This document shows, piece by piece, positions 1 to 37,773 of a stretch of 64,000 nt of DNA (position 1 is the stretch's first letter; each line of letters begins with the position of its first letter). The DNA comes from Candidatus Gottesmanbacteria bacterium (GTDB taxonomy: Bacteria > Patescibacteriota > Microgenomatia > UBA10105 > UBA927). The stretch covers positions 198,206 to 262,205 of the forward strand of contig OY970230.1 in assembly GCA_963714095.1 (NCBI GenBank). Reading direction: 5' to 3'. The position numbers and the translations under genes are program-made. A model generated the notes under the pieces. It saw nothing but the letters and a program-made list of their open reading frames with translations, ran no database searches and was not told where the DNA came from.

Positions 1-605
1 TGATCTATCTCGTCCGTCACGGGGAAACGGAATGGAACGTGAAAAGAGTAATGCAGGGAAAGACAGACATCCGCTTAAACGCTTTAGGACGGAAACAAGC
101 TAGAACTGTAGCAATCACCCTTAAAAATATTCACTTTGATGCATTTTATTCTTCGCCTCTTACCCGCACGATGGAAACAGCAAAAATAATTAACAAATTT
201 CACCATCTATCAATAATTACTGACAGTGATCTGCAGGAAAGAAACTTTGGTAGCCTTGAGGGTAAGTCCTACGAAGAAGTAAATAGGTTTCATCCGGGTC
301 TCATATTTAGTGAAATATGGAATTATCCGAACTTTAGGCCACCGGATGGTGAAAGCGCGTCGGACGTACTCAAACGGGCGAAGCGATTTTCAGTTAAAAT
401 CTTACGGATTCATAAGGGCCAACATGTTCTTGTTGTTTCACACGGAGACGTGCTTCGCTCTATTATCGGATCTTTTATGAACATCCACCCTAAATATTTT
501 TTAGATGTGTATGTAGGAAACACCGGTTTAACCGTACTGGAAACATCAGGCAAAGGTGAACCAACATTACATGTCATGAATTATAAAACTCCAATAAATC
601 ATTAG
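1..605 (+). CDS. histidine phosphatase family protein (phosphoglycerate mutase-like), 5' end cut by window edge
   Basis: The frame is open from nt 3. Nt 3-38 translate to IYLVRHGETEWN (RHG catalytic motif) and run directly into listed ORF 39..605, whose start is only a GTG. A second His motif, VVSHGDVLRS, lies near the C-terminus. Confidence 0.85.
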   Translation, partial: IYLVRHGETEWNVKRVMQGKTDIRLNALGRKQARTVAITLKNIHFDAFYSSPLTRTMETAKIINKFHHLSIITDSDLQERNFGSLEGKSYEEVNRFHPGLIFSEIWNYPNFRPPDGESASDVLKRAKRFSVKILRIHKGQHVLVVSHGDVLRSIIGSFMNIHPKYFLDVYVGNTGLTVLETSGKGEPTLHVMNYKTPINH

Positions 606-1075
606 AGCGTGTAATCTTTGGAGAACTGGCTTTTGGCGCCGGAGGTGTCGGTAAATTCCAGATTCAGCGTTACTTTTGAAACTCCGGGGTCGGGTGTGCA
701 GACATTCCTTGAGCAGGTGCCCAGATAGATTTCCTGGCTGATGGCGTCCTTTCCGGTCACGTCCATCGGCTTACTTCCGCTCGTTACGCCTTTCACAAGC
801 CCGTTACTGTCATAGGTAAGCTCATAGGCAATGCTGGCCATTTTGCTGCCCATTCCCTTCACACTGATGTCGACGGTGTTGGCAGCAGTCGCACTTTTGG
901 TAAAATCAACGCTGATGGACGCGTCAACCGAAGGAACCGGGGTAGTGGTAATATCCGTCGTCGTTTGAGTCGTCGCGGGCGGCGTACCGGAAAAAACCGC
1001 TTTATACACAACAAATCCCGTAACCAAAAGTAAAACTACTAAAACGCTGATAATAATTCTGATCTTTTTGCTCAT
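602..1075 (-). CDS. hypothetical membrane-anchored surface protein with Thr/Pro-rich linker
   Basis: N-terminal hydrophobic helix IIISVLVVLLLVTGFVVY, then linker TPPATTQTTTDITTTPVP, then a ~110-aa domain with a single Cys pair (CSRNVC). No family recognised. Confidence 0.55.
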   Translation of the reverse strand: MSKKIRIIISVLVVLLLVTGFVVYKAVFSGTPPATTQTTTDITTTPVPSVDASISVDFTKSATAANTVDISVKGMGSKMASIAYELTYDSNGLVKGVTSGSKPMDVTGKDAISQEIYLGTCSRNVCTPDPGVSKVTLNLEFTDTSGAKSQFSKDYTL

Positions 1076-1084
1076 ATTTCCAGC

Positions 1085-2371
1085 TTACCCGTTTCCCAAT
1101 TTTTCGTCAATATAGGCCGCGAGTTTACTGATATTGACGCGGTCCTGGCGAGTCGTGTCGCGGTCACGCACCGTTACCGTATCATCCTCCAGGGTTGTGT
1201 AGTCGACTGTAATGCACCATGGTGTGCCGGCTTCATCCTGCGCCAGATACCGCTTGCCGATGTTCCCGCGGTCATCCCACGCAGTCAGAAAGCGCGTTTT
1301 GATGCTGTCATAGACAGTTTTAGCCGTACGAACGAGCTCAGGTTTGTTGGCAACCAGCGGGAATACGGCGGCCTTTTTTGGAGCCAACCGCGGATCAAGT
1401 TTCAGGACAATCCGCTTTTCCTCCTGAACATACGCCTCCAGTAGGAAAAACAACGCAGCACGGTCAACGCCTCCGGATGTTTCGATAACCCACGGCGTAT
1501 ATTCTACGCCTGCGATATCATCTCTGTATTTCAGCTTATGATTCCCCAAATCAAAATCGCCGCGGTGATGGATTCCCTCAAATTCGCTCCATCCGAACGG
1601 CGCATTATATTCAATATCCGTTGCGCGCCGTGCATAGTGCGCCCGCTCATCGTCCCGGTGATCCCGAAACCGCAGATGTGAAACATCCATACCCAGTGAC
1701 GTATACCATTTGATACGCGCTTCTTTCCAGTACTCAAACCATTTATCCCCTTCCGTATCGTCGGGTTTGACAAAAAACTCCAACTCCATCTGTTCAAACT
1801 CCCGTGAGCGGAAGGTAAAATTCCCCGGGGTTATTTCATTCCTAAATGCTTTTCCGATTTGGGCAATACCAAAGGGAATTTTTATACGGGTTGAATCAAC
1901 GACATTTCTGAAATTTACGAAAACCCCCTGTGTGATTTCTCCGCGAAGATACACTTTCTCTTTTGGCTCAGTAACACCCAAGTAAACTTCCGTCAGAAGA
2001 TTAAACTGTTTTGGCTGCGTCCATTCTATTTTCTCTTTATGCTCCTTCTGGTGATCTGTAAGGAGCTCCTGTTTATCAGCACGGAACCGCTTATGGCAAA
2101 TTTTACATTCAACTAAGGGATCGGCAAACGCTTTCGTGTGGCCTGAAGCTTCCCAGACGACAGGGTTCATGATGATGGCGGCATCCATGCCCACGACGTC
2201 ATCGCGCAGCTGCACCATCGTGCGCCACCACTCGTTTTTGATATTCTTTTTCAGTTCCACACCTAAGGGGCCGTAATCCCAGAACCCGGTAATGCCTCCG
2301 TAAATCTCACTGCCCGGATAAATAAATCCGCGGCGTTTGGCAAGAGCTACAATGCTGTCCAGACTGGTCAT
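1085..2371 (-). CDS. glyQS: glycine--tRNA ligase (class II, alpha2 type)
   Basis: The N-terminus LAKRRGFIYPGSEIYGGITGFWDYGPLGVELKKNIKNEWW is the canonical GlyQS opening. Length (428 aa) and class II core motifs (FRNEITPGNFTFRSREFEQMELEFF) fit. Confidence 0.95.
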   Translation of the reverse strand: MTSLDSIVALAKRRGFIYPGSEIYGGITGFWDYGPLGVELKKNIKNEWWRTMVQLRDDVVGMDAAIIMNPVVWEASGHTKAFADPLVECKICHKRFRADKQELLTDHQKEHKEKIEWTQPKQFNLLTEVYLGVTEPKEKVYLRGEITQGVFVNFRNVVDSTRIKIPFGIAQIGKAFRNEITPGNFTFRSREFEQMELEFFVKPDDTEGDKWFEYWKEARIKWYTSLGMDVSHLRFRDHRDDERAHYARRATDIEYNAPFGWSEFEGIHHRGDFDLGNHKLKYRDDIAGVEYTPWVIETSGGVDRAALFFLLEAYVQEEKRIVLKLDPRLAPKKAAVFPLVANKPELVRTAKTVYDSIKTRFLTAWDDRGNIGKRYLAQDEAGTPWCITVDYTTLEDDTVTVRDRDTTRQDRVNISKLAAYIDEKLGNG

Positions 2372-2383
2372 AGTGAAATTGTA

Positions 2384-2944
2384 TCAAATGTTGAAGTGGG
2401 ACACCAGCCGCACGGTTTTAAGCCGCCGTTCCAACAACTGTTCAACATAGGAATCCAATGATCCTGTCGGGGGCCTGCGTCCCCGTTCCAAATATCCAAG
2501 CTCGCGAAGGAGGGCCGCGGCAAAACGCTCCCGAAGTACATCAATACGTTCACCTTTCACGGAGGAAAGAGCGGCAAGAGCATCGCAAAGAAGCAAAAAG
2601 ACATCTTCGTGCGCCTGCCCGGCTGGAAGTAATCCGTCAATAAGTTCGCACAGATAATAGGCGGCGCCGATGCGATGAAGATCCGACCGTACTCCTTGGT
2701 ATGAAGCAATCGGCGATACTTCCGTCAGGGTTTCCATCCCGCTTCCTATGTGGATCGTCGCAATAACGCGGTTAAATATCTCAATATGAGGTCCGCGTTT
2801 ACTGGATATTTTGCGTACCCCTTTTGCAAGCCACCGCATTTTGCCGGATTGTCTGGTAAATACCGTCAGAATTCTGTCTGCCTCGCCAACATTGTGTCGT
2901 TTGAGAATAACGCCTTCGACCGTATACACACGCGGAGGCGGCAT
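2384..2944 (-). CDS. recO: DNA repair protein RecO
   Basis: OB-fold N-terminus VEGVILKRHNVGEADRILTVFTRQSGKMRWLAKGVRK is typical of RecO. It is short (186 aa), as in reduced genomes. Confidence 0.8.
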   Translation of the reverse strand: MPPPRVYTVEGVILKRHNVGEADRILTVFTRQSGKMRWLAKGVRKISSKRGPHIEIFNRVIATIHIGSGMETLTEVSPIASYQGVRSDLHRIGAAYYLCELIDGLLPAGQAHEDVFLLLCDALAALSSVKGERIDVLRERFAAALLRELGYLERGRRPPTGSLDSYVEQLLERRLKTVRLVSHFNI

Positions 2945-2945
2945 G

Positions 2946-4940
2946 TTAGAAGGTAAATTCTGTATCAGACAGGAGGGTTGTATTCACTTTTTCGTTCCCG
3001 TTTAGCTTCAGTATAAAATTCTGATCAGATGAACCGGACTGGCGCTGGACTAGGAGGTGATATTTTCCGTCAGTTTCTTTGACCGGCGACGAATACGTGA
3101 GTGTCAGTTGCGCAACACCCAACGGGTTCACGGTAAGGAAACCCTGGAACATCGTCTTTCCCAAACTCGACGCGGTGGTCATGGGTGTCGCCTTCCCGTC
3201 TTGCGGTGACTGGGTCCCCTGACTTTGCTTGAGCTGGCTCCCCGCCGGCACATAGATGCGGATCCAATCCCGAAGCGGAGCATTCAGACACAATCCGCCG
3301 CTGGCCAAACCGCAATCGCTGCCCGGATACGGATTTTTGTAGTCAATCGTGAGATTGGTCGTCATCGTGCCATCACCGTTCACCGTTGTATCTTTTGTGA
3401 TCTTTTCCGAAACGAACATATTGGATTTGGCGCCGCCCATGTTCGCTTCGTTAATCGTAAGATAATCCCACCCCTGCCCTTCCTTATACTTCAATATTGC
3501 GGCACTTTCCGATGCTGTCATAATACGTCCGGCCATATTAAAATTCTCTGCGGCTTTTTGGATTGTGGGGTCAGTAAAATACGTCTGTATATGTTTATCC
3601 GTAATCTCTGTCAAGAGCATCTGGAAGAGGTTTCCCCAATATTTTGACGGGGAAACGCCGAGGGCCATTTGTAACATCTGGCGCATCAGCTCACCGATTT
3701 CGCCTTTCCGGTCAGTACGGACATAATTAACCGGCCTCGAAGAATAATCCTCAAGCTCGTAAATCGCCTCAGCACAATTGCAGCGGGGATCAATAGCCGC
3801 ACTAAATACTCTCCCGCTTGCGTTGATGGGGCCCAATATTTTGAGCGCATCTACGAGTACATGCGTATCCATGGTGATAATACCGTCTATGTTGTGTTCT
3901 GTCCCGGACGTATTATCGTACATTGACTGAAATTGCTGCATGGAAATTTTAAAATCCGGTGATAAATTCGAATCCCGGATATTTAAATTGTAAACACCCG
4001 GCAAATACGCAAGAATTTCCGGTGGTGCAGGATATTTTTTGGTAAGCGCTGCATCGAGAGAATAAATATCATCGGATTTCTCCAGAATTGCTTTTCCGCC
4101 GACGAACCGAAACTGCGCATATGATGTCATGAATCCACCTGTCGGCCGCAGCTCCTTGTCATTTTGGAAAATCACCAGGTACCGCTTTTCCGCAGGATAC
4201 CCCAGAATTTTCGGCAGATTAGTAAGGAGGGGCTGGGCGTTCACAAACAAGTTCGCGGCATTTTCTATAACCTCCTTGGCTCCGACCAGCTGAGGCCGTA
4301 TAGAAGTTTTGCCGATGTGATCCGGATAGCGGTTGGGGTCGATATAATCAATTTCTTTCCGTAACGTATCGATACTCGACGCCATGGTGTTGATTTTCGG
4401 AACCAAGGCGTTCATGGTTTTGACTGCAGTCTGGATCCGGTCGTCTGCCGTTCCCGAAACGAAATTACTTTTACCCTTGAGTCCTAAAAGATCAGCGTTC
4501 GGTTCCAAAGCAGCGACAGCCGCGTCCCCCGCATCAAGCCCCGCAAATCCGGCTTTTATGGCATGATCGCCGTCTGAGATATACGCGCCTAAAAACGGAA
4601 CATGTTCCAAAGGAAGTACTTTGTTATATTCGTCTCGAAGTGCAGTCAGGCTCGTCCTCGTTGCCGCGAGCCCTTCTTTGGTTTTGACAATGTCCTGTTT
4701 TTTAATCGCCGCGCCAGTCTCACGAGCGGCGGCAATGACGGCCGGTGCTTTGGAAATCACTCCGCGCAGCGGTAAAAGCATAATGCCGATAATGACAAAA
4801 ATAAGGACAAGGATTCCCAAAGGAATAGCGATAATTTTCCACGGAAATGATTTTTTTGTATGCATAGGTGGCGGTACTATCGGCATCACCCGCGGAGCAG
4901 GTGTCGTCGGTAAATTAATTTTTTTCAGTTCCTCGGGCAT
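2946..4940 (-). CDS. DUF4012 domain-containing membrane-anchored protein
   Basis: Single N-terminal TM (IIAIPLGILVLIFVIIGIMLL) and a large ectodomain. It carries the DUF4012-type signature FQNDKELRPTGGFMTSYAQFRF. Confidence 0.75.
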   Translation of the reverse strand: MPEELKKINLPTTPAPRVMPIVPPPMHTKKSFPWKIIAIPLGILVLIFVIIGIMLLPLRGVISKAPAVIAAARETGAAIKKQDIVKTKEGLAATRTSLTALRDEYNKVLPLEHVPFLGAYISDGDHAIKAGFAGLDAGDAAVAALEPNADLLGLKGKSNFVSGTADDRIQTAVKTMNALVPKINTMASSIDTLRKEIDYIDPNRYPDHIGKTSIRPQLVGAKEVIENAANLFVNAQPLLTNLPKILGYPAEKRYLVIFQNDKELRPTGGFMTSYAQFRFVGGKAILEKSDDIYSLDAALTKKYPAPPEILAYLPGVYNLNIRDSNLSPDFKISMQQFQSMYDNTSGTEHNIDGIITMDTHVLVDALKILGPINASGRVFSAAIDPRCNCAEAIYELEDYSSRPVNYVRTDRKGEIGELMRQMLQMALGVSPSKYWGNLFQMLLTEITDKHIQTYFTDPTIQKAAENFNMAGRIMTASESAAILKYKEGQGWDYLTINEANMGGAKSNMFVSEKITKDTTVNGDGTMTTNLTIDYKNPYPGSDCGLASGGLCLNAPLRDWIRIYVPAGSQLKQSQGTQSPQDGKATPMTTASSLGKTMFQGFLTVNPLGVAQLTLTYSSPVKETDGKYHLLVQRQSGSSDQNFILKLNGNEKVNTTLLSDTEFTF

Positions 4941-4995
4941 GTTCTTTATTGTCTCGTATTTGCCAGGTACTTGTCAATGGACCGCGGACGGAAGA

Positions 4996-5634
4996 CTAGA
5001 CTGCGCCTTTACCGGAGATCATTGCCCACGGACTCCTGAAAAGTATGGCGATATCCATGAGCAGTGACCGTTTTTTTACGTAATCCGCATCCATTTTAAT
5101 CCGTTTATCAAAATTCACCTCGCTTCTCCCCGACACCTGCCAATGCCCGGTAATGCCAGGTTTGGCAGACAGCACAATTTTCACTAAATTTTTGGTATGC
5201 GGGTATTTCCGCTGCTGTTCCACGAGTTCGTCCGGATAATACGGACGGGGTCCCACGAGACTCATGTCTCCGCGGATCACATTCACAAGCTGGGGAATTT
5301 CATCAAGAGAATGTTTCCTTATAAACCGTCCCACCCGAGTGACCCGGGGATCATCCAACAGTTTGTAACTATTCCGTTTATATTCGCTGTACAGTTTTGC
5401 CAACTTAGGATCACTCCGGAGCTGTTCATGGGCATTCACGACCATGGAGCGGAATTTAAAGAGTTTAAAGAGTTTCCCGTTTTTTCCGACCCGCTGGGGA
5501 GTATCGGCAAATACCGGACCTTCACTATCCAAAACAATTGCGACGGCTGTAATAAGGCTGATCGGCAGAAACAAAAGGAATATGAATATGCTTCCCACAA
5601 GATCAATGCATCGTTTAATAAACGTGTATATCAT
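4996..5634 (-). CDS. polyprenyl-phosphate sugar-phosphate transferase (small bacterial sugar transferase, WbaP/PglC-like)
   Basis: One N-terminal re-entrant hydrophobic helix. Motifs [21 protein letters not shown] and [14 protein letters not shown] are typical of the bacterial sugar transferase family. Confidence 0.9.
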
Positions 5635-5646
5635 ACGTTGAACCCC

Positions 5647-6729
5647 TCAGGTAAGATGCTCGTTTTGGGTACCCTTTAAACTTTCAACGAGTTTTTTAAT
5701 TTTCGGAACGGAGGATTTGTTGCAGACCAGAATCACATCGTTTGTTGCAACGATAAGGGCATCCTTCACGTCTATCGTCGTCACCAGCTGATCCGTGTAA
5801 TTATAGACCAATGAATCTTCCGTGTCCGTCAGGAGCACTTTTCCCTCCGTTACGTTTTTATCCGCAGCCTCCTCAAGCGCTTCTTTTAATGCTTCCCACG
5901 CCCCGATATCACTCCATCCGATATCCTCAGAAATAACATAGGCAGTAGACGGATTCAGATTTTCCAGAATCAGATTATCAAAACTGTTTTTTTCCAATGT
6001 AGGATAGACGCTGGCAAGCGTTTCCTCGAACCGATCTGTATGCCAGCTCTCGGAAATACGGGAAAGTCCCGCATATATATTCGGTGCAAACTGTTTATAT
6101 TGCGACCATAAAAATTGCGGCGTGGTGACAAAGTATCCTAGATTCCAAGCATGATGATCACTTTCAAAGTACCGTTTCGCTGTTTTTGCGTCAGGCCGGT
6201 ATTGACAGTCAACAAACGAATAAATTGGAATTTCGTTGGCGGTCATCATTCTTTTACCGTACTCAATCCACCCCAAATTTTCACTGGCAAACCGTGGTTT
6301 TTGCGCAACAAACACTATCCTGTTGGAATCTTTTTTTACAATTTCTCCTGCAGCAACAAGAATTTTCCGGAACAGTGCTTCCTTTTTTACCAAATGATCG
6401 CTCCACACAATGACCATAGGCTCCAGAGGAAAATCCCGGACAAGGAGTGACGTAATCAAACCAACCGCAGGCCCGACATCCCGCATCTCCGGCTCGCCTA
6501 TCACGTGATCAGGCGGCAATTCCCCTAATTGTTTTTGGACGATCGCAACATACGGCGCGCCCGTGGAAACATAGATGTCCTTCCATGAAAAGTCCGGCAG
6601 CAATCTGTTGGCTGCCAGCTGCAAGGTTGAGGAACTTCCTATAATTTTTTCAAACTGTTTCGGAGATTTTTTCCGGGAAAGCGGCCATAACCGCGTTCCC
6701 ACTCCTCCTGCAAAAATGACTGCTTTCAT
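5647..6729 (-). CDS. mannose-1-phosphate guanylyltransferase-like nucleotidyltransferase (no PMI domain)
   Basis: N-terminus MKAVIFAGGVGTRLWPLSRKKSPKQF is the ManC/NTP-transferase signature. Length 360 aa. Confidence 0.8.
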   Translation of the reverse strand: MKAVIFAGGVGTRLWPLSRKKSPKQFEKIIGSSSTLQLAANRLLPDFSWKDIYVSTGAPYVAIVQKQLGELPPDHVIGEPEMRDVGPAVGLITSLLVRDFPLEPMVIVWSDHLVKKEALFRKILVAAGEIVKKDSNRIVFVAQKPRFASENLGWIEYGKRMMTANEIPIYSFVDCQYRPDAKTAKRYFESDHHAWNLGYFVTTPQFLWSQYKQFAPNIYAGLSRISESWHTDRFEETLASVYPTLEKNSFDNLILENLNPSTAYVISEDIGWSDIGAWEALKEALEEAADKNVTEGKVLLTDTEDSLVYNYTDQLVTTIDVKDALIVATNDVILVCNKSSVPKIKKLVESLKGTQNEHLT

Positions 6730-7817
6730 TGTATTTTTGTGGCGAGTCTTTCAACCGTGACCCGCATTTCTTTTTTAAATCTTTCTATACCAAAACGTTC
6801 TGCGTTAGCTCTGCATGAACCGCTATCATACCACCCTTTGTTAAATATATGCAAAGCGCGGATCAACGATTCTTTTGTCTGTGCATCAAACAAAATTCCT
6901 GTTTTCCCTTCGATCACAGTTTCCGCCATGCCGCTCTGTCGATAACAGATAACCGGCTTACCGCACGATTGTGCTTCAAGAGCGATTAAACCAAAATCCT
7001 CATCGCCTGCGAACACAAAAGCACGGCACCTTTGATAATAGGCAACAAGATCTGCGTCTGTCAAATAACGCGTAATAAAAGTGATATTATTTTTTGCCCT
7101 CCTCTGCAACACCCGATTGCCCAATCCGCTCCCGATAATTATGAGCGGCCAGCCAAGCTCGTTAAACGCATCAATGACGAGATCTATGCGCTTGTATGGG
7201 ACAAAGCGGGATACCAAAAGAAAATAATTTTCCTTATTCTTTGCAATTCTAAATGTATTCGTATCTATCGGAGGATAAATCACCGTATCGACGTTGCGAT
7301 GATAATATTTCTTTATACGATCCGCGACGTGGCTCGAAATAGTAATGTAATAATCAGGCCGGGAAGAGGCAATTAAATCCCACCGCTTCAGGGTTGGTGT
7401 AAACATTTTCAACATACGTGCGGATACATAATCGGCCCGTTCCATATAGGTCGAATTTCCGCTCCATAAATACCGTGTCGGCGTAAGGCAATAGCAAATA
7501 TGGACGGTGCCCGGCTTGGTAATGATGTTTTTGGCTTCGGCAGACGTCACTGATAGAACCACATCGTACGCGTCAAAAGAAAATGACTCAAACGCCATAG
7601 GGGTAAGCCACGGAAACAGTTCGTGATGCCTTTTTGCAAACGGCACATGCTGCAGAAACGAAGTGTGAACGTCAAAAACGTCTGCCCATGACGCACGGCG
7701 CGGATCATAGACTGCGGTAAAAAGAGGCGCGTCCGGCCAAATCTCATGAAGAGCGAGTAAGACTCGTTCCGCCCCGCCCCATTTATTAACCCGGTCGTAC
7801 ACCAGTGCAATTTTCAT
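6726..7817 (-). CDS. glycosyltransferase family 4 (GT-B)
   Basis: C-terminal donor-binding region FAGDEDFGLIALEAQSCGKPVICY (E-x7-E type). 4-nt stop/start overlap with the downstream gene. Confidence 0.85.
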   Translation of the reverse strand: MKIALVYDRVNKWGGAERVLLALHEIWPDAPLFTAVYDPRRASWADVFDVHTSFLQHVPFAKRHHELFPWLTPMAFESFSFDAYDVVLSVTSAEAKNIITKPGTVHICYCLTPTRYLWSGNSTYMERADYVSARMLKMFTPTLKRWDLIASSRPDYYITISSHVADRIKKYYHRNVDTVIYPPIDTNTFRIAKNKENYFLLVSRFVPYKRIDLVIDAFNELGWPLIIIGSGLGNRVLQRRAKNNITFITRYLTDADLVAYYQRCRAFVFAGDEDFGLIALEAQSCGKPVICYRQSGMAETVIEGKTGILFDAQTKESLIRALHIFNKGWYDSGSCRANAERFGIERFKKEMRVTVERLATKIQ

Positions 7818-8271
7818 ATATTTTTAACGTATCACTCGCCATTTTGTGCCAGGAATATTTTTTCACAATACTTGAATCAACTGGTGGTCTTTTTTTTGCT
7901 GCACGGGTCAAAATTTTTGCAAGATCCTCTGCGCTGTGCGGATCAAAATAGATTGCACAGTTCCCGAGTATCTCATGAAACACAGGAATGTCGCTTACTA
8001 TCACGGGACAATTATTTGCAAGAGCTTCAAGGGCCGGAAGACCGAACCCTTCCATAAGCGAAGGAAACACGAGCGCCTGGGCATTTTTATATAACTCTGA
8101 AAGTTCTACGTCGGTTACGGTTTTGGGTTGTACCCCTAATCGTTTATAGAAAAAATCATCGTTCCCGACAAAAACAACCCGTACACCGGCCTTCAATGCA
8201 GCGCGCATAAGTAACTCCACATTCTTATGCGGGTATGCATTCCCCACGTATAAAAAATAGTTATCCTTCAT
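7786..8271 (-). CDS. glycosyltransferase family 4, C-terminal (donor-binding) domain only
   Basis: Starts at the usual C-domain opening YFLYVGNAYPHKNV and contains EGFGLPALEALANNCPVIVS. It has no N-terminal Rossmann domain of its own. Confidence 0.75.
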   Translation of the reverse strand: MKDNYFLYVGNAYPHKNVELLMRAALKAGVRVVFVGNDDFFYKRLGVQPKTVTDVELSELYKNAQALVFPSLMEGFGLPALEALANNCPVIVSDIPVFHEILGNCAIYFDPHSAEDLAKILTRAAKKRPPVDSSIVKKYSWHKMASDTLKIYENCTGVRPG

Positions 8272-8782
8272 AAATAACTTCTATCTGCTCGGACAACACA
8301 TCAAAATGATCAAGAATTTCTTTTTTCGTACTTTCCGAAACGGCAATTATTTTTTCGCTCCAGAAAATTGCTTTTAACAGAGAAATATAATATCCCAGGC
8401 GGCGGATTTTGTAGAAAACATACGACAGCGTCGTTGCTTTTCCTGTGTCAAAATGCAAAATCGTCAGGTCGTGGATGGTCACGATACATTTTCCGAAATA
8501 GAAAAGCGGGACATTAAAATAGGGAACATGCAAAAGATCGAGATGCTCACTGTTAAAAATCGCCGGCATGAACAGCTGTTCAGTGACACTATGCCATGGA
8601 ATGTCCGCTAACCGTTTCGTCCATCTGGCATTAGGCAATGCAAACGAATCAAACGCAGATTTCCGTAAAAAAACCACGTAGGAATTTTTATCATCAATCT
8701 TCCCCAATTCTGCAATAAGATTGCGGACATATCGTCCGACGCCGGTCTCGTTTACAAGACGTGCATCTATGCCTATCTTCAT
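8261..8782 (-). CDS. glycosyltransferase family 4, N-terminal (acceptor) domain only
   Basis: MKIGIDARLVNETGVGRYVRNL opening. Ends ...IEVIYEG-stop at the end of the N-domain. Its last codons overlap the ATG of 7786..8271 (reverse-strand sequence GTTATTTATGAAGGATAA). Confidence 0.75.
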   Translation of the reverse strand: MKIGIDARLVNETGVGRYVRNLIAELGKIDDKNSYVVFLRKSAFDSFALPNARWTKRLADIPWHSVTEQLFMPAIFNSEHLDLLHVPYFNVPLFYFGKCIVTIHDLTILHFDTGKATTLSYVFYKIRRLGYYISLLKAIFWSEKIIAVSESTKKEILDHFDVLSEQIEVIYEG

Positions 8783-9648
8783 ATAGAAAATTGTTTTAAG
8801 AAAAATAACCGCATCGAATAAAATAGATTAATGACGAGAGATACAACCGGTCCGTATTTTTTCGCATAATGTTTTTTGTAAAACAGCCAGTTATACTCAT
8901 GAAAATAAATCTCGGTTATAACCGCCCGCGAACGAAGAGCACTGCTTCTTCCGCTCTGCTTCTTCTTATGAAGGACTATCGCCTCCGGATTAAACCACAC
9001 TTCCCAACCCTTCTGTTTAAACCGGTACGCCCAATCGATATCCTCAGCATACATAAAATAATCTTCATCAAGGAGACCCACCTCATGTATTGCCTCACTC
9101 CTAGCAAAGAAAAATGCACCGCTCACGCAGTCCACCTGATGGGGAATCGTGATATTTTTGTACCCCATGTGATACTGCCCGAAGATGCGCGACTCTGGGA
9201 ATAATTTTTCAAGACCAATCATATACGTGAAAGCTGCCCACGGCGTCGGGAATCCCCTGTGGCACGCCGGATCCATCTTTCCGTTTGCCAATTCCAGCCG
9301 GCAGGTGGCAGCCCCCGCCTTCAGGTGCCCGTCCATAAACCGCAGCATCGCGCCGATGGAGCCCTCCCGGATCTCCGTATCTGAATTTAACAGTAAAATA
9401 TATTTTCCTTTGGCAATTTTTATCCCTTTGTTATTCGCTTTGGCAAACCCTAAATTCTTCGTGTTCAAAATGAGCCGTATGTCGGGAATCTTTTTGAATA
9501 GTTCCGTGCTTCCGTCGGACGACCCGTTATCTACCACGATAATTTCCAACACTACTCCTTCCGACCACTTCCGTATCGAGTCCAGACATGCCTTCGTCAT
9601 GTCTTTTGTGTTGTAATTGACAATAATAATGGAAAGCTCAGTGTTCAT
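8779..9648 (-). CDS. glycosyltransferase family 2
   Basis: LSIIIVNYNTKD...EIIVVDNGSSDGS...LLLNSDTE is the GT-A DxD architecture, WbbL/rhamnosyltransferase-like. Length 289 aa. Confidence 0.9.
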   Translation of the reverse strand: MNTELSIIIVNYNTKDMTKACLDSIRKWSEGVVLEIIVVDNGSSDGSTELFKKIPDIRLILNTKNLGFAKANNKGIKIAKGKYILLLNSDTEIREGSIGAMLRFMDGHLKAGAATCRLELANGKMDPACHRGFPTPWAAFTYMIGLEKLFPESRIFGQYHMGYKNITIPHQVDCVSGAFFFARSEAIHEVGLLDEDYFMYAEDIDWAYRFKQKGWEVWFNPEAIVLHKKKQSGRSSALRSRAVITEIYFHEYNWLFYKKHYAKKYGPVVSLVINLFYSMRLFFLKQFSI

Positions 9649-10786
9649 ACGCTTCTATCCAAACTCTGTCCTGTTGTTGGGCTATCCTGTCCCACGAATA
9701 TTCTTTTTCTATAAGCGCACGGGCGTTATGTACGATATCCGCACGCTTTTTTGCGTCACGAAGTTTTACTATCGATTCCAAAATTTCATCAGTAGTATCG
9801 GCAACCAAAAAATGTTTTTCTGCTTCTCCCTGCATCCCCGCGATTCCCAAAGAAGAAGCTACAACCGGCAGTCCTGCTGCCATCGCTTCCAATATTTTAT
9901 ATTTTGTCCCGCCCCCGATACGTATAGGAGCCAGCATAATGTCTGCACCGTTGAGTTCATCCTGAATACTGTCTACGCTGCCGGCATAATACGGACCGCG
10001 CGGAGCATATTTACCCACGATACGAAGCTGAGCGTCGGGGTACACTTTGCCAATCGCTGGCCAAATATCATGGATAATGTACTGGGCTGCGTCCCTGTTT
10101 TCCATCCACCGGAAATTCCCGACATATAAAAATTTTGGATTTTTGGACATTATTTTTTTCGGACGGAATGCAAACGCCTTCGTATCTACGCCGTTGGGCA
10201 CGACGGAAACATTGGGCTGCCCTATATACGACCGGTCACTTTCCGACACGGAAATTATCTTTGTTGCCTTTCTCCACACATGCCGTTCCCACAATTTCAT
10301 TTTTATGACATCGCGTAAAAGCAGCGGCCGCAGTACACCGATTTTAAATTTCCTCACATAGGATTCATACACGGTATGTTCAATGTTATGTTCGGCTACA
10401 ACTATAGGAATACGGTGCTCCGTCGGAATCGAGGGCCATACGTATCCCGGCTCGATATGGATACAATCATAGTTACCCATGGAAATCTCATCAGATAAAA
10501 GCGCAAGCATCTCACTGTTATGATAACTTTGCCATAATAACGGGTATGAACCGATCATGGATTTTAATAGATATTTCGGCTGCCACACGCGTCCGCGGTG
10601 TACCGTTGTGACACTTTTACAAAATGACAATTCCGGCAAGTATTTCTTTTCACTTTCTGACCGGATAAACGAATAAAGATGGATCTCGTGTATTCCCGCG
10701 AGGCGTTTCAGTAAATTATATATGCGGATCTGACCTCCGGAGTACAGCGGGTATGGCAATATTGCTGATACGAATAAAATCTTCAT
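9638..10786 (-). CDS. glycosyltransferase family 4 (GT-B)
   Basis: MKILFVSAILPYPLYSGGQIRIYNLLKRL opening and C-terminal GGGTKYKILEAMAAGLPVVAS. Confidence 0.9.
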   Translation of the reverse strand: MKILFVSAILPYPLYSGGQIRIYNLLKRLAGIHEIHLYSFIRSESEKKYLPELSFCKSVTTVHRGRVWQPKYLLKSMIGSYPLLWQSYHNSEMLALLSDEISMGNYDCIHIEPGYVWPSIPTEHRIPIVVAEHNIEHTVYESYVRKFKIGVLRPLLLRDVIKMKLWERHVWRKATKIISVSESDRSYIGQPNVSVVPNGVDTKAFAFRPKKIMSKNPKFLYVGNFRWMENRDAAQYIIHDIWPAIGKVYPDAQLRIVGKYAPRGPYYAGSVDSIQDELNGADIMLAPIRIGGGTKYKILEAMAAGLPVVASSLGIAGMQGEAEKHFLVADTTDEILESIVKLRDAKKRADIVHNARALIEKEYSWDRIAQQQDRVWIEAYEH

Positions 10787-10790
10787 GAAT

Positions 10791-12236
10791 TTACTTTGCC
10801 GCAGCAGGTGTCGCTTCTTTTGGCTTTGTTAAATCAATGATTGCAAATGTATCGTTCCGTACTAATACCGTGTACTTTGCGGCAAGGTCGCGGGTCTCAG
10901 TATCGGCATCGGTTGGTGACACGGTGACGTATGCAGTTGCTCCCATGGCGATTTTCTTATCGATATCAAACCCCTCGGGCCAACCCTGACGCTGGGTCTG
11001 ATACAAAAATGTCGTGTCTCCGTTATATGGCGCTATCACTTTGGCATCTTTCGGAAGTATAGCGTCGGCGGCTTTCCCCGCCGCAACAATTTCAGGATGA
11101 TTAATCCAATAATATGTCCGTATCGTAAACCATGAAAAACCGAGCGCCGCGGCTATACTTAGAATCGCGACGATAATCCCGGGAATTTTCATTCTGAACA
11201 GTGATACGAAGCCTTTCGCGGTATAAATCGCGACAACCGGAAGAATAAGAATTTGATAATAATCATGCTGGACGTTGCCTGTGGCAAAAATAATAAAATA
11301 CAGAAGAGTTCCGACGGCTAACCATCGGAAAATCCATCCTTCTTTTTTATCCGCAGATGACGCCAGGCCTAAACCGAACGGGATAAGCCCCCAGAATCCG
11401 AGGATAAGATCTCCCAAACGGGTCGCAAAAAGCCAGTGAAACCATGCGCCTTTGAAGCGGATACCGTTGCCGTTTAATAACCATGTACTTGCCGGAATGC
11501 CTTCCGGAAATTGAAGTATCCAGCGGCGCCATAATAAAAGTGGGATCACCGAAATAGTGCCGTACAGAAGGTATTTAAAAAATGTTTGTTTCGAAATACC
11601 AGATTGCCTAAAAATAATATACGGGATGGGAATAAGAAGAAATACCGCCATGGGTTTAGACAACAATGCCAATGCGCCTGCAATAGCGCTGACAATGACC
11701 CAGCGAAAATTTTTCCTCCGCCCGACCAGCCACAAACTCAACACGGACCAGAATACCATCTGCGGATCCGGCAGTATGGTTCTGCCGTAGTACATACTGT
11801 ACGGCAGTACAGCAAAAAGAAATGCAGCAAACAAACCGGTAACAGGGTCAATATATTGGGCTACCAATAGTCCTAAGACAACCGTTGTTCCGGCGGATGC
11901 CGCGATCGTCACGATTCGGAGCCACACTTCAATCGGAATCTTCGGAATACTCAATTTGCCCAATACCGCAATAACCTGATAGATCGGGAATTCCACCATC
12001 CGCCAGCCCTGCGGGTTATCTTTACCGGATTGAATGTTCGAGAGGTCATCATATCTCGGGTGTAGTGGGTCTATCCCGAACCGCAAAAAATTCCGGGCAA
12101 CAGCAGCGGTATCGGCCTGGCGCCAACTATGCCAGTCCGCGACCGGATACGTAATATGGTATAACCGCACACCACAAGCCGCCACGCCAATACAAAACAA
12201 AAGGGGAATAAAATATTTAGCGATAAATTTTCCCAT
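10791..12236 (-). CDS. GT-C fold glycosyltransferase, PMT_2/ArnT-like (family 39/83-like)
   Basis: About 12 hydrophobic segments. The first-loop motif DWHSWRQADTAAVARNFLRFG is as seen in PMT_2-type lipid-carrier-dependent transferases. C-terminal soluble tail. Confidence 0.7.
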   Translation of the reverse strand: MGKFIAKYFIPLLFCIGVAACGVRLYHITYPVADWHSWRQADTAAVARNFLRFGIDPLHPRYDDLSNIQSGKDNPQGWRMVEFPIYQVIAVLGKLSIPKIPIEVWLRIVTIAASAGTTVVLGLLVAQYIDPVTGLFAAFLFAVLPYSMYYGRTILPDPQMVFWSVLSLWLVGRRKNFRWVIVSAIAGALALLSKPMAVFLLIPIPYIIFRQSGISKQTFFKYLLYGTISVIPLLLWRRWILQFPEGIPASTWLLNGNGIRFKGAWFHWLFATRLGDLILGFWGLIPFGLGLASSADKKEGWIFRWLAVGTLLYFIIFATGNVQHDYYQILILPVVAIYTAKGFVSLFRMKIPGIIVAILSIAAALGFSWFTIRTYYWINHPEIVAAGKAADAILPKDAKVIAPYNGDTTFLYQTQRQGWPEGFDIDKKIAMGATAYVTVSPTDADTETRDLAAKYTVLVRNDTFAIIDLTKPKEATPAAAK

Positions 12237-12239
12237 ACA

Positions 12240-15233
12240 TTATTTTTCGACTTTCATAAGCTGTTTCAACTGATAGTTTTCGAAAATAAATCTCTCCGCT
12301 GCAAACCCTACTTGTACTGGCGTGCTATATGCGGCTTCAGGCGTTGAAACGTTTGTCGTCGTATACCCATATGCATTCAACCGGAAAATATGCCACAAAG
12401 GATCCGCTAACCCTGTCGGGAAAATCCACGCGCGCCCGTACCTGATTGGCGTATTGATAAATATGAAACTGGTATATTGCCGAAGCGGGAAAAATTGCTT
12501 ACTTAAAGCAAGAAGTGTATTCTGGGAAACGGAACTTGCTTTTTTCCAATCAGTACTCAAACGCCCGATTTCCGACACATTCCATACGATAAGTCCTGCG
12601 ATTGCGGCAACGACAACGAATTTCACGGCGGCCTGCCGTGAGCGTTTCCACCATACAGATATCCCCGTACCCAGTGCCACAATAAAAAATCCGCTCGCGG
12701 CAAACACGTACCGTTCACTCATGTTTCCCAACCCGATAAATGCCAAAAGTGCAACGAAGCCGCATAATGCCCAGAAAAACACTGCGCGGTACGCGGCAAC
12801 GCGGCGCCAAACTTTCCATACGCATGCGGCAACGCCACCGATAAGCAATAACCCAGTCCCCACGGCAATCATGCGATGAATCCGCAGATACTCCCGCAGT
12901 ATTCCCCAGGATTCAATGACGCGGGTTCCGAAAAAGGTTGAGACGACATAGCCGACGGTGTTTCCGATAACGTTAAACGGCAACGTCGAGAGTTTGTAGC
13001 CATAATCTCCTGATGGAGGCACAGCACCCGAAGCAGTCCTGACAATCCAATACAGCGGTATTGCTATCAAAGGTAAGAACGTTGTCCAGTGGCGTTTACC
13101 CAGTATTACCCACGCAACGAGACAGTAAATAAGAGGCGCGACGATCATCCCATCATATGAGAGCATAGCGGACACGAGTAAAAGGAGTGACGCACAATAT
13201 ACTACCCATTTACCCCATGTAGGGCGCCGTCCGTACATCACCAAAAGAACGATACTGCCGAACAAACTGGCTGCAGAAAGTAAACTGCTCTGCCCTGAAA
13301 TCCAAAAAACATTTTCGTTGTGTATGGCAAGTGAAGTAAAGAGCAAGGCAAAAACCAGCGCTACCCAACGTTTGACGTCCGTCAGAACCAGCAGAAGATA
13401 CACAAAATACGCGCTTACGGCCAAAAGCAGGTACGACAAGAAGTGATACCCTTCGGGCTTCAGCCAAAACACCGCATACAGGACAAAATACCAAAACTTC
13501 GGTATCGGACGATAAAAAAATCCCTGGGCATTCGTAAAGTACGAAAGCAAACCCGAGAACGGCGTACTGGCTGCCCACCGCAGCCAGGTAAAATCATCCG
13601 CGACGAAATAGTTAGAAATGGAAGAACCGAAAAGCACAATGGCTGCCAGAAATAAATACATGGCATATGCGATATCATGCGTTAATGCGCGCCACATCAG
13701 TCTCATATAATCCGTAAACCGAAATTCAACCGTCGTAAGGAGTGCAAGCGCGACTCCAAGGAGTAACCATAACGTAAAGGCCACCTTCGACGCTTCAAAC
13801 ACGTCAATAAGAATCCCGTTAAATATTAAACCCGTGAGACCTCCGAATACGCCGACAACAAACGCCTTCTGATATCCGACGAGCGTTTCTTTCCGCCTGA
13901 AAAATATAACATAGGCGGCAAGAAGTATCCCTAAAAACGCAACAGTTCCCAATATGCCGGTTTCACCCAGCATCCTGACATAATCGCCGTCGGATGCCAC
14001 TGATAGCGTCGAATAGCCGCTCCCCAACAGGATATTCCGTTTGAAAGCGGTCATTGCTAGAGGCCACTCCCCCTGCAGACGCGTCGTGATGGAAATGTCA
14101 TAAACGAGCGCCTTCTGGATGAGGAAGCTTCCGGAAACCGTAGCGATTTCTCCCGTTCCGCTTTCGAGACTCACGCTGGTGTAAGAAATCGTCTTTACCT
14201 GGCTCGAAGCCGAAGCAGGCGCCTGCGACGCAGGCAAACCGATATATTCACTTCCTGTCGGCAAATTTTCCACAGCCGGAGATGCAGACTGCTGAACAAC
14301 CGCAGTTGTCCCTTCGAGGGACGCAAGTGTCCCGACCGGTTTACCGGTAGACAAATCCACAATGACGTCATTATATCTGAATGTTTTATAAAACCGATCC
14401 GATGCACCATTAAAAAAATTCAGCAGGAAAAAACTGAAGAGTATAACCGGAATGATAAACCATTTCTTTTTATACCAAAAAAGCATCACGCTTATCGCGA
14501 CAAGATACACGAGAAACGACGTCCGTGATTGTGTGAGAAACAGCATGACGAGCGATCCGACGGACACCATGAAAAATATAATTTTCTGCCACAGTTTATT
14601 GGCCGCAAATACAAACGCGGTAAGAATCGGAACGGTGAAAACGACAAATGCAGCAAGATCATAATGTCCTCCAAAGGTTGAAGGGATGCGCGCCGTAGGC
14701 GGAAGACGAAGCGGTATTCCCTTTGCGAACTGCTCGTTCATCGTCAAAAATGCCGGCCAGCCGAAAAATTTTTCACCAAGTCCGTATACGATAATGCCTA
14801 CTGTTGTTCCCACAAGCGTCCAGATGACCGCCGTAACCAACGACTTCTTCCTGGCAACGACGTCAAATGCTATAAAAAACAGCATCATGTATTCTATCCG
14901 CCGGAGCCAATGCAGCAAAACAAGATGGGGGAAATACCCGACAAGCTTTGGACCGATAAAAATCATGGAAAAGACAGCCGAAATAAGGCCGACGCCCCAA
15001 AAAACAAGAATCGGCCATGTAAGCGGCGTTTTCGGAATATGACGCTGCTGTAGGCGCAGCAGAACATACACACCAACTGCAGCCGCAACAAAAAAATCTT
15101 CCAGGCGTATATAAACAAACGTCCGGATAACATTAATAAGCGGCAACTTCGGATAGAGCGGAATAAACGCCAAAAAAAACAATATCGTCAGTCCGCCGAT
15201 GTTACTGGTTAACCAATGCAAGGCCTTCTTCAT
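12240..15233 (-). CDS. fusion membrane protein: O-antigen ligase/polymerase (Wzy_C) domain plus second GT-C-like polytopic domain
   Basis: Residues ~1-515 carry Wzy_C-like features (FLTQSRTSFLVYLVAI ... LLGSGYSTL ... DYVRMLGETGILG) with a ~100-aa Ser/Ala/Thr-rich loop insertion. Residues ~520-997 form a second multi-TM block opening with YFVADDFTWLRWA. Confidence 0.65.
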   Translation of the reverse strand: MKKALHWLTSNIGGLTILFFLAFIPLYPKLPLINVIRTFVYIRLEDFFVAAAVGVYVLLRLQQRHIPKTPLTWPILVFWGVGLISAVFSMIFIGPKLVGYFPHLVLLHWLRRIEYMMLFFIAFDVVARKKSLVTAVIWTLVGTTVGIIVYGLGEKFFGWPAFLTMNEQFAKGIPLRLPPTARIPSTFGGHYDLAAFVVFTVPILTAFVFAANKLWQKIIFFMVSVGSLVMLFLTQSRTSFLVYLVAISVMLFWYKKKWFIIPVILFSFFLLNFFNGASDRFYKTFRYNDVIVDLSTGKPVGTLASLEGTTAVVQQSASPAVENLPTGSEYIGLPASQAPASASSQVKTISYTSVSLESGTGEIATVSGSFLIQKALVYDISITTRLQGEWPLAMTAFKRNILLGSGYSTLSVASDGDYVRMLGETGILGTVAFLGILLAAYVIFFRRKETLVGYQKAFVVGVFGGLTGLIFNGILIDVFEASKVAFTLWLLLGVALALLTTVEFRFTDYMRLMWRALTHDIAYAMYLFLAAIVLFGSSISNYFVADDFTWLRWAASTPFSGLLSYFTNAQGFFYRPIPKFWYFVLYAVFWLKPEGYHFLSYLLLAVSAYFVYLLLVLTDVKRWVALVFALLFTSLAIHNENVFWISGQSSLLSAASLFGSIVLLVMYGRRPTWGKWVVYCASLLLLVSAMLSYDGMIVAPLIYCLVAWVILGKRHWTTFLPLIAIPLYWIVRTASGAVPPSGDYGYKLSTLPFNVIGNTVGYVVSTFFGTRVIESWGILREYLRIHRMIAVGTGLLLIGGVAACVWKVWRRVAAYRAVFFWALCGFVALLAFIGLGNMSERYVFAASGFFIVALGTGISVWWKRSRQAAVKFVVVAAIAGLIVWNVSEIGRLSTDWKKASSVSQNTLLALSKQFFPLRQYTSFIFINTPIRYGRAWIFPTGLADPLWHIFRLNAYGYTTTNVSTPEAAYSTPVQVGFAAERFIFENYQLKQLMKVEK

Positions 15234-16071
15234 ATATTGTGACCAAATCCTGCTTTCCGAGGATTTTACCGATACTAATTGAAACGGTCGCCTTAACCGT
15301 CAACATAAATTTTAACACAGATACCTCCTGCGGTGTTTTGTGCTTCCGATAAAAATACAGAAGCCCGCGGAATATATTTGCCACTGGCGCCCGCTTATTG
15401 CCGCTGGAAGCGGCACCGGTATGAATAAAGCGCGCGTCAGGAGTAAAAAAGACGGAATATCCTTTTCGAGCCGCACGATAGAGAAATTCTATCTCATCCA
15501 TATACATAAATATCCCCTGATCGAATAACCCCACATCATAAAAAGAGTCCCTAGTGCCGAGTAAACATGCTCCTGACACCCAACCAACACGCCTCGTATG
15601 GTCCGGCGAATACCGGGTTATCGATATCTTATCTCCGCGGCAAAACAACATGAGAAATATATACCAAAGGGAAAACTCGGGCCCGCAGGACGGCTGAAGC
15701 GATCCATCCTCGTTGTAGAGTTTTCCTCCGACGAAAGATTTAGGATGTGCCAGAGCAAATTCATATAATTTTTCAAAAGCACCATTGAGCGCATCGATAT
15801 CGGAATTGAGCATAAGAACATAGGTCCCCTTCGCAATATGAAGACCCATGTTATTGGCGGTACCATAACCTACATTTTCCTTATTGAGTATTTTTATTAC
15901 CTGAGGAAATTGTGTATTCAACATCGCAACAGAACCGTCACGGGACGCATTATCGACAACAATGATTTCATATGTCAACTTGGAATGTTTAAGAGTCTCA
16001 ACGATTGACCGCAGACACCGCCCCGTCAAGTGTTTAGTGTTAAAACTGGGGATAATAATTGATAGATCCAT
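15202..16071 (-). CDS. glycosyltransferase family 2
   Basis: MDLSIIIPSFNTKH...EIIVVDNASRDGS...LMLNSDID. Same 289-aa length and subfamily as 8779..9648. Confidence 0.9.
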   Translation of the reverse strand: MDLSIIIPSFNTKHLTGRCLRSIVETLKHSKLTYEIIVVDNASRDGSVAMLNTQFPQVIKILNKENVGYGTANNMGLHIAKGTYVLMLNSDIDALNGAFEKLYEFALAHPKSFVGGKLYNEDGSLQPSCGPEFSLWYIFLMLFCRGDKISITRYSPDHTRRVGWVSGACLLGTRDSFYDVGLFDQGIFMYMDEIEFLYRAARKGYSVFFTPDARFIHTGAASSGNKRAPVANIFRGLLYFYRKHKTPQEVSVLKFMLTVKATVSISIGKILGKQDLVTIYEEGLALVNQ

Positions 16072-16074
16072 ACG

Positions 16075-18325: not shown

Positions 18326-18326
18326 C

Positions 18327-20910: not shown

Positions 20911-20914
20911 TCCT

Positions 20915-21136
20915 CTATTTTACTTTATTGGGCCGCAGGAGGGAAATCAGAAGGAAAGAGAGCGTGAACGCAGCACCATACCAAGTCAGACGCTCGGCGG
21001 TAAAAAAAGTCCACGTAGCAAATAACGGAATCGCCAAAACCCAGCTTGCGAGGCCGGCAAACAGAAATAACCGGGGCTTTCTAATTAAAAGTAATACGAC
21101 AAATACCAGAAAAAATCCTATATCCTGCGGCTTCAT
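20915..21136 (-). CDS. small hydrophobic membrane protein (73 aa, 2-3 TM)
   Basis: Almost entirely hydrophobic (FFLVFVVLLLI, LFLFAGLASWVLAIPLFATWTFF, AAFTLSFLLISLL). Tightly packed between the UXS-like gene and galE with a 4-nt overlap. Confidence 0.5.
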   Translation of the reverse strand: MKPQDIGFFLVFVVLLLIRKPRLFLFAGLASWVLAIPLFATWTFFTAERLTWYGAAFTLSFLLISLLRPNKVK

Positions 21137-22077: not shown

Positions 22078-22081
22078 GCAT

Positions 22082-37765: not shown

Positions 37766-37773
37766 TAGAAAAC

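Follow-up and report, generated by a model that had tools for sequence, protein, structure and literature searches.

A GT4 glycosyltransferase gene divided at its interdomain linker in Candidatus Gottesmanbacteria: a probable two-subunit GT-B enzyme

A stretch of 64,000 nucleotides (nt) from contig OY970230.1 of a Candidatus (Ca.) Gottesmanbacteria bacterium (assembly GCA_963714095.1, positions 198,206–262,205), referred to below as the window, contains two short overlapping open reading frames (ORFs), here called the N-half and the C-half, each of which encodes one domain of a family GT4 glycosyltransferase. With a probability of about 0.8, the two ORFs encode the paired subunits of a single retaining glycosyltransferase of the GT-B type (GT4), the gene of which was split at the linker between its two Rossmann domains. 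As judged from sequence comparisons, this reading is carried by the anatomy of the locus, its orthology with single-chain enzymes, its inheritance, purifying selection on both halves and the recurrence of the split.

The two reading frames and their junction

The N-half gene (8261..8782, minus strand) encodes a protein of 173 aa, MKIGIDARLV...IEVIYEG, followed by a TAA stop codon, and comprises only the N-terminal, acceptor-side Rossmann domain. The C-half gene (7786..8271, minus strand) encodes 161 aa starting at MKDNYFLYVGNAYPHKNV (MKDNYFLYVGN) and comprises only the C-terminal, nucleotide-sugar-side Rossmann domain, including the motif EGFGLPALEA. The original prediction, made from the DNA letters and an ORF list, had assigned the domains in the same way, and both the ORF list and a Pfam scan of the two halves (gathering cut-offs, matches reported at E up to 0.01) agree with it. 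The N-half matched PF13439 (Glyco_transf_4) only, with 42.1 bits against a cut-off of 28.5, over profile positions 3–165 of 170; the C-half matched PF00534 (Glycos_transf_1) with 78.9 bits against a cut-off of 26.4, over positions 14–159 of 172, and also PF13692, so that all families found are of the GT4 type. Neither half contains internal stop codons, as first noted, and no decay was found. The presence of both domains on one polypeptide, which is usual for GT4 although not strictly defining, is replaced here by two ORFs in different frames. A conceptual concatenation of the N-half and the C-half aligned over at least 97% of its length with 120 single-chain homologues, at 48–62% identity and E-values of 1e-106 to 1e-131; the relation to single-chain GT4 enzymes is therefore far beyond chance.

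The junction TATGAAGGATAA (8261..8272, minus strand) consists of the Tyr-Glu-Gly codons of YEG and the stop codon. The start of the second ORF is an out-of-frame ATG inside TAT-GAA, the Tyr and Glu codons of the first, which bears out the earlier statement that it lies within the last codons of the N-half. This ATG is located 8 nt upstream of the TAA of the first ORF (GTTATTTATGAAGGATAA), and the genes overlap by 11 nt (8261..8271, ATGAAGGATAA). In the frame of the second ORF, a TAG is found 12 nt upstream of the ATG, making it the earliest start possible.

Although the cut was correctly placed between the domains in the original prediction, the split was said to lie exactly at the linker, and the deletion of the linker itself was overlooked. 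In 17 of 17 aligned single-chain homologues, further residues separate YEG from YFLYVGN; these are missing from the window, where just K-D-N is left, read in the frame of the second ORF. In 128 single-chain loci, this linker comprises 14–38 residues (median 21) and is never shorter than 14.

The residues flanking the lost linker are well conserved. The motif IEVIYEG (8264..8284, minus strand) forms the last β-strand of the N-domain, residues 167–169 in the AlphaFold2 (AF2) models, and its conserved E-G immediately precedes the missing linker, both residues (E172 and G173) being invariant across the homologue alignment. YVGNAYPHKN (8221..8250, minus strand) comprises the first β-strand of the C-domain (177–181 in the AF2 model) and a conserved Lys, with Y-V-G-N-A-Y-P-H-K invariant among the aligned homologues; by analogy, the Lys has a putative donor-binding role. 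The E-x7-E motif is a signature of retaining GT4 enzymes, and in EGFGLPALEA (8023..8052, minus strand) its glutamates, E246 and E254, are both invariant in the family. In the C-terminal helix of the C-half, KYSWHKMASDTLKIYEN (7810..7860, minus strand), W and T are invariant among the aligned homologues; the helix spans residues 313–327 in the concatenation model and 339–354 in the model of P0001, one of the two closest single-chain relatives. In GT-B folds, the C-terminal helix crosses back onto the N-domain, and by analogy the helix of the C-half is proposed to be a non-covalent tether of both chains. An N-domain segment, TIHDLTILHFDTGKATT (8429..8479, minus strand), is highly conserved, with H104, D105, L106, T107, T113, G114 and A116 invariant, and is modelled with low confidence: for residues 106–121 of the concatenation, the predicted local distance difference test score (pLDDT) is below 50, and the corresponding block of P0001 scores 67. 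This segment is probably a flexible acceptor- or membrane-facing loop. An N-terminal membrane anchor was not found on the N-half when read from sequence.

The top Foldseek matches of the AF2 models of the linkerless concatenation and of P0001 are all GT-B proteins, mostly GT4, with a probability of 1.00. The concatenation was modelled with a predicted template modelling score (pTM) of 0.68 and a root-mean-square deviation (RMSD) of 13.6–20 Å to GT4 structures; both Rossmann domains are recognisable, and their relative position is non-canonical. Single-chain P0001 was modelled with a pLDDT of 92 and a pTM of 0.89, and its model has a template modelling score of 0.65–0.79 and an RMSD of 4–6 Å to most of the same structures. 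Only the P0001 model shows the domains arranged canonically, and the comparison is weak, as the AF2 alignments were of unequal depth (18 versus 64 sequences). Since single-chain linkers never fall below 14 aa and the concatenation model is non-canonical, the window product appears implausible as a single chain.

Distribution of the split and selection on both halves

Loci with the junction type of the window, YEG-stop followed by MKD[KN]YFLYVGN, are designated group A. The original prediction had proposed a search of other assemblies for insertions or deletions at the junction. An identical N-half protein is encoded on a Logan contig of run ERR11571142, and the last 32 residues of the N-half are encoded on a contig of run ERR11594402; both contigs, from independent runs, span the junction and are identical there to the window. 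The contig of ERR11594402 ends at window position ~8360, 89 nt upstream of the start of the second ORF, and that of ERR11571142 ends at 6792, inside the next GT4 gene; a difference between strains in the glycan operon could be the reason for these ends beside the locus.

Orthologues in diverged relatives have the same split. In Ca. Gottesmanbacteria LacPavin_0920_SED3_MAG_47_8 (L024), which represents a GTDB species, an N-half of 173 aa ends with QIEVIYEG-stop and is joined by TATGAAGGATAA to a C-half of 172 aa that begins with MKDKYFLYVGN; the N-half of L024 is 84% identical to that of the window, and its remaining DNA is clearly diverged. An additional 147-aa ORF (L024 1729..2172) lies between the C-half and the downstream GT4 gene in this genome and is not present in the window, L168, L169 or L170. 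The group A junction was also found in seven JGI metagenome contigs (L084–L090), in the 995-kb contig L168 and in L172; the junction 12-mer TATGAAGGATAA is common to the window, L024, L084–L088, L090 (with a TGA stop), L168 and L172. When the N-half was searched alone, about 68 clusters (90% identity) of 169–177-aa N-halves ending YEG-stop were found, and a search with the C-half alone found about 69 clusters (90% identity) of C-halves starting MKD[KN]YFLYVGN. These clusters originate from NCBI, JGI, ENA and Logan, with contigs of up to 1 Mb, and, where named, mostly belong to Ca. Gottesmanbacteria. At every split locus read, the N-half precedes the C-half, and the two are adjacent and overlapping. 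In public annotation, the halves appear as 'glycosyltransferase', 'glycosyltransferase family 1 protein' or 'hypothetical protein'.

In other genomes, single-chain orthologues fill this operon slot. A script classified 163 loci, of which 147 are single-chain. The closest single-chain relatives, P0001 and P0002, are 75–76% identical to the N-half and 50–52% identical to the C-half of the window, and they occupy the identical operon position, in the order PMT_2 GT-C, GT4, GT2, [GT4], GT4, ManC-like gene, polyprenyl-phosphate sugar phosphotransferase (PGT), DUF4012 and RecO, where the bracketed gene is the orthologue.

Selection on each half, another check that had been suggested at the outset, was estimated as the ratio of nonsynonymous to synonymous substitution rates (dN/dS, Nei–Gojobori) between the window and eight split relatives. 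The ratio is 0.05–0.09 for the N-half and 0.09–0.19 for the C-half, the values being approximate because dS is saturated (1–3). Five JGI contigs scored in this way are 78–87% (N-half) and 58–80% (C-half) identical to the window. Group A has kept 98.3% (N) and 99.6% (C) of the conserved residues at 86 columns, each of which shows at least 97% conservation among the 120 single-chain homologues. The window and L168 are 82% identical in the N-half and 75% in the C-half, and their neighbouring glycosyltransferases are 64–78% identical; for the single-chain pair L169/L170, the figures are 71% (N part) and 56% (C part). By this measure, evolution of the split gene is no quicker than that of the neighbouring genes or of the single-chain pair.

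These data bear on the choice, left by the original prediction, between a two-subunit enzyme and a very recent frameshift. An ordinary single-chain GT4 gene that had recently shifted frame, had become a pseudogene or had been misread in sequencing or assembly would fit the observations that the best homologues of the concatenated query are all single-chain (120/120), that some 12–15 linker residues are missing, as a deletion mutation would give, and that the ends of the two Logan contigs, at 8360 and 6792, are close to the locus, a possible sign of population heterogeneity. The identical junction, however, occurs in three assemblies from two runs, and the same junction is found in about 70 diverged clusters, with synonymous divergence saturated at no fewer than 10 loci; a deletion of ~41 nt is, moreover, atypical of sequencing error. 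Assembly error is ruled out by the identity of the window and the Logan contigs at the junction, and a pseudogene by dN/dS together with the retention of 98–99.6% of invariant residues and the lack of stop codons. This explanation is exceedingly improbable; the diverged relatives, dN/dS and independent runs exclude the recent-frameshift half of the earlier alternative and favour the two-subunit half.

Translational recoding would rejoin the two frames. A +1 ribosomal frameshift at GGA-TAA-A would enter the frame of the C-half and yield a single chain, ...VIYEG-KYFLYVGN..., containing the junction-spanning peptide VIYEGKYFLYVGN. In favour of this, the DNA of the 12-nt junction is almost invariant across group A, but this conservation is explained by dual coding of the conserved Y-E-G and M-K-D. 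A slip from GGA to GAU would re-pair poorly, a Shine-Dalgarno stimulator is missing, and the junction sequences of the other split loci (group B and L134, described below) differ. The recoded product would also be without the linker of at least 14 residues seen in the 128 single-chain relatives, and AF2 does not model it as a canonical GT-B. Both recoding and the existence of the spanning peptide are thus considered highly unlikely.

Loss of the linker and recurrence of the fission

The sequence of the single-chain relatives suggests how the split could have originated. The latent ATG in TATGAA is present in 98 of the 128 single-chain loci (77%). In P0001, the region reads TAT GAA GGG GTG GAT AAG GCA...(12 codons)...GGA AAA TAT TTC, encoding YEGVDK...GKYF, and in the split clade the same region is TATGAAGGATAAATATTTT. 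According to this reconstruction, fission of the GT4 gene at the interdomain linker would have taken place in the ancestor of a Gottesmanbacteria clade through a deletion of 3n+2 nt just after YEG, which would create the stop codon and, at the same time, put the ATG of TATGAA in the frame of the C-domain; the linker of at least 14 residues would have gone in that same deletion or soon afterwards. Two paths may be drawn: a 5-nt deletion giving TATGAAGGATAAG, then an in-frame loss of 36 nt, or a single deletion of ~41 nt with substitutions.

A second set of split loci, group B, comprises about 24 clusters of N-halves ending TYE(A/S)(A/P)-stop and about 21 clusters of C-halves starting MK(L/Q)PEK-YFLYVGN; TYEAA-stop followed by MKLPDK... 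is also given as its junction type. The two genes overlap by 14 nt, use the same TATGAA ATG and occupy the same operon position as in group A. In a neighbour-joining (NJ) tree of the N-domain (173 columns, 100 bootstraps), group B is monophyletic in 87/100 bootstraps and is separated from group A by most single-chain sequences; groups A and B together are monophyletic in 0/100. Judged by neighbouring genes, group B genomes stand much further from the window than single-chain-bearing genomes do; the GT2 neighbour, for example, is 50–51% identical to that of the window in group B, compared with 74–78% in single-chain-bearing genomes. At the start of the group B C-half, an N-terminal tail retains an 18-residue linker remnant in L171 and six residues in others, which suggests that the linker shrinks after fission. 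Within this tail in L171 (Logan SRR10267473), downstream of the ATG, a perfect 14-nt tandem repeat, AATACCAAATACTA, is present in 2.9 copies (3529..3569); since the unit is not a multiple of three, gain or loss of a copy would put the C-half out of frame, and the repeat could provide slippage-dependent on/off expression of the C-half.

A third split in this GT4 family, L134 (2181..3225 of OBEQ010903763.1), is located at a slightly different point, the N-half ending VIYESGELENV-stop. Two start codons are open to its C-half, the TATGAA ATG (MNQENWKMSKKPYLLYVGN) and an internal one (MSKKPYLL...), and the frames overlap by up to 29 nt. The TATGAA ATG lies in the frame of the C-half in all three splits, which points to recurrent fission, and from these comparisons we infer at least two, probably three, independent events. 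That the split apparently arose more than once by way of the same latent ATG had been missed earlier. An alternative history, an ancient split with many re-fusions, may also be considered. Strict monophyly of group A was recovered in 0/100 bootstraps, with P0001 and P0002 nested among group A sequences, and P0202, which has the group A junction, is placed far from group A; the NJ tree is therefore too noisy to count origins within group A, and it leaves the number of fissions, or occasional re-fusion, unsettled.

Several other short N-domain relatives (P0144, P0158, P0182, P0188, P0189, P0193 and P0195) have a stop codon a few residues later, their endings being HEGADKS, YEGGSL, YEGVDIL, YEGVTL, YEGV, YEGVDQKIYKPV and YEGVDKKIQNSKFKGD. 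These seven proteins may represent further independent frameshifts, real or errors.

Proposed working, known systems and operon setting

In the proposed working, both halves would be translated from the operon mRNA, and termination–reinitiation at the 11-nt overlap would probably couple the start of the C-half to the end of the N-half, holding the halves at about 1:1. Such coupling is suggested by the A/T-rich context, the overlap and the near lack of Shine-Dalgarno sites: the motif is absent from nearly every gene in the window, and the lack of a detected site for the second ORF is uninformative, as the genome barely uses such sites. The two proteins would then associate non-covalently and rebuild the catalytic cleft; contacts at the interface between the domains would hold them together, along with the C-terminal helix at 7810..7860, a likely clasp. 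The clasp role follows by analogy from GT-B topology and from Alg13/Alg14. The enzyme would add one sugar to a polyprenyl-phosphate-linked oligosaccharide made by the operon, the set of which includes a PGT, ManC, a GT2, two further GT4s, a GT-C and a Wzy-like protein.

Several points count against the two-subunit enzyme. Coupling, heterodimer formation, activity and substrate are all parts of the scheme that we infer, and the 64 kb examined belong to a contig of ~1.09 Mb, so a single-chain paralogue may be encoded elsewhere in the genome. The saturated dS, the unequal AF2 alignments and the noisy tree described above weigh in the same direction.

A second stand-alone GT4 N-domain gene is located in the window at 17765..18325 (minus strand). 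It encodes 186 aa, matches PF13439 over profile positions 3–166 of 170 and ends ...LHVIYPGFSL. It overlaps by 4 nt a complete GT4 gene (16635..17768), to which it is only 23% identical, and there is no C-only partner nearby. In a search of 1.8-billion-protein representatives, the best two matches of its product have 182 and 193 aa (61% and 55% identical); further relatives mostly have 340–390 aa.

The halves could both have been kept and yet no longer form one enzyme, having undergone sub- or neofunctionalisation after fission; the N-half would then be a non-catalytic acceptor- or membrane-binding or regulatory subunit, and the C-half would act alone or with another partner. The orphan gene at 17765..18325, which stops at the same structural boundary as the split (...VIYPGFSL), lacks an adjoining C-only partner and has short relatives, is in line with this, as is a truncated, N-domain-only EpsF that alters exopolysaccharide chain length in Streptococcus thermophilus (PMC7023835). 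The C-half also evolves faster than the N-half, but the C part is the faster one in the single-chain pair L169/L170 too. Adjacency, common order and overlap of the halves at every split locus read, the catalytic and invariant residues of both domains, kept as in single-chain enzymes, and the replacement of the single-chain orthologue by the pair in an otherwise unchanged operon all argue for one enzyme, and the separation of functions is regarded as unlikely. Distinctly less likely still is that fission yields exchangeable GT-B modules, with one donor-binding C-half serving several acceptor-binding N-halves, for which the orphan gene would be a candidate second partner. If true, a small gene set would build more glycan linkages, and the latent ATG in the YEG codons would be a repeatable switch, reversible while the linker survives.

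As precedents for a two-subunit enzyme, the original prediction had named Alg13/Alg14 and Cps14F/Cps14G. These hold as analogy, but they belong to a different, inverting GT-B lineage, and no sequence relationship was seen in the Pfam scan, where neither half matched Alg14 or Glyco_tran_28_C at E up to 0.01. Alg14/Alg13 of eukaryotes and EpsE/EpsF-type pairs of bacteria and archaea are MurG-like GT-B transferases of uridine diphosphate sugars that consist of two polypeptides; the lineage is inverting, and one ancient split followed by re-fusions has been inferred for it (PMC8993221). As in these pairs, the GT-B protein of the window is cut between the Rossmann domains, with the N-domain gene first and the C-domain gene second, and lipid-linked saccharide substrates are predicted from the operon. 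In contrast, the window halves are of the GT4 type (PF13439, PF00534, E-x7-E), retaining by family; the N-half has no N-terminal membrane anchor, and the pair combines a lost linker with an 11-nt overlap of its genes. The single-chain form is dominant and appears to be ancestral here, and the splits appear young, clade-restricted and recurrent. The best reading, by analogy, is that the split GT4 works like Alg14/Alg13 or EpsE/EpsF and is not homologous to them. EpsFN of S. thermophilus, a naturally truncated, N-domain-only glycosyltransferase that is expressed and modulates chain length (PMC7023835), likewise is a stand-alone N-domain gene within a polysaccharide cluster; the C-domain partner is absent there, whereas a matching C-half always adjoins here.

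By sequence and fold, the nearest solved relatives are the methylmannose-polysaccharide mannosyltransferase of M. hassiacum (7qsg), PimA (2gej/4n9w), MshA (3c4q), BshA (5d00) and PglA (8dqd); these and WaaG (2iv7) are all single-chain GT4 enzymes. They share the two Pfam domains, E-x7-E and the fold with the split enzyme, but have 15–23% sequence identity and consist of one polypeptide with an intact linker. NCBIfam has no equivalog for the split enzyme; because no equivalog model applies, specificity is not transferable from the solved enzymes. Two further PDB entries, 2f9f (a 177-aa 'WbaZ-1' chain) and 5i45 (218 aa), align to the C-domain only; they may equally be natural halves or constructs and were not used as precedent. 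The single-chain orthologues (P0001, P0002 and the 147 single-chain loci, from Gottesmanbacteria and other Patescibacteria) have the operon position and neighbours in common with the split pair and differ in the 14–38-residue linker and the single reading frame.

To our knowledge, the accepted two-chain GT-B examples so far all come from the unrelated Alg14/13–EpsE/F lineage. In the literature, no split or bipartite GT4 was found beside the Alg14/13–EpsE/F work, which is weak evidence given limited open-access coverage. Engineered constructs are the usual means of testing whether GT-B enzymes need their covalent linker or hinge for the open–closed catalytic cycle. In the present case many natural pairs are on offer, in which one orthologue, within one type of operon, exists both as two chains without a linker and as a single chain, so that the linker question can be put directly to the large family of retaining GT4 enzymes. 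The locus also illustrates a simple, repeatable route of fission, in which a hidden out-of-frame start in a conserved motif would be activated by a 3n+2 deletion. In practice, about 140 clusters labelled as generic or hypothetical half-size glycosyltransferases in Patescibacteria genomes should be paired rather than discarded as fragments or pseudogenes.

The split gene belongs to a long operon that, judging by its gene content, is a lipid-carrier-based surface-glycan assembly line. Upstream, a GT2 gene (8779..9648, minus strand) shares 4 nt, including its stop codon, with the beginning of the N-half and is the conserved left neighbour of split and single-chain orthologues alike. Downstream, a complete GT4 gene of 363 aa (6726..7817, minus strand), the first 32 nt of which are also the last 32 nt of the C-half, is the conserved right neighbour in group A and in single-chain orthologues. 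It is followed by genes for a ManC-like mannose-1-phosphate guanylyltransferase (5647..6729, minus strand; TIGR01479, 213 bits) and a small PGT (4996..5634, minus strand; TIGR03025, 247 bits); both scores are below the curated cut-offs, so the assignments, for which the Pfam families of the relatives' orthologous genes were also used, are at family level only. Guanosine diphosphate mannose is a plausible donor, as a guess, because the ManC gene is adjacent.

On the other side of the GT2 gene are located an stp1-like GT4 gene (9638..10786), a PMT_2 GT-C gene (10791..12236) and a gene for a Wzy_C-like membrane protein of 997 aa (12240..15233), all on the minus strand; the gene order of 9638..15233 is kept in L164, L166, L168, L169 and L170. 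Further upstream, the window contains another GT2, a hexapeptide acyltransferase, more GT4 genes and sugar epimerases/dehydratases. The whole of window 1..22116 (minus strand) appears as one long co-directional glycan-assembly operon with many overlapping genes: by 4 nt at 8779–8782 and 6726–6729, 11 nt at 9638–9648, 32 nt at 7786–7817 and 15202–15233, and 61 nt at 16635–16695. The ORF at 18327..19940 encodes a 537-aa protein with no Pfam match. Beyond the operon, window 32000..44000 has a GC content of 0.36–0.40, lower than that of the first 32 kb (0.44–0.49), and the otherwise all-minus layout is broken by two plus-strand genes; this segment may be laterally acquired or compositionally distinct.

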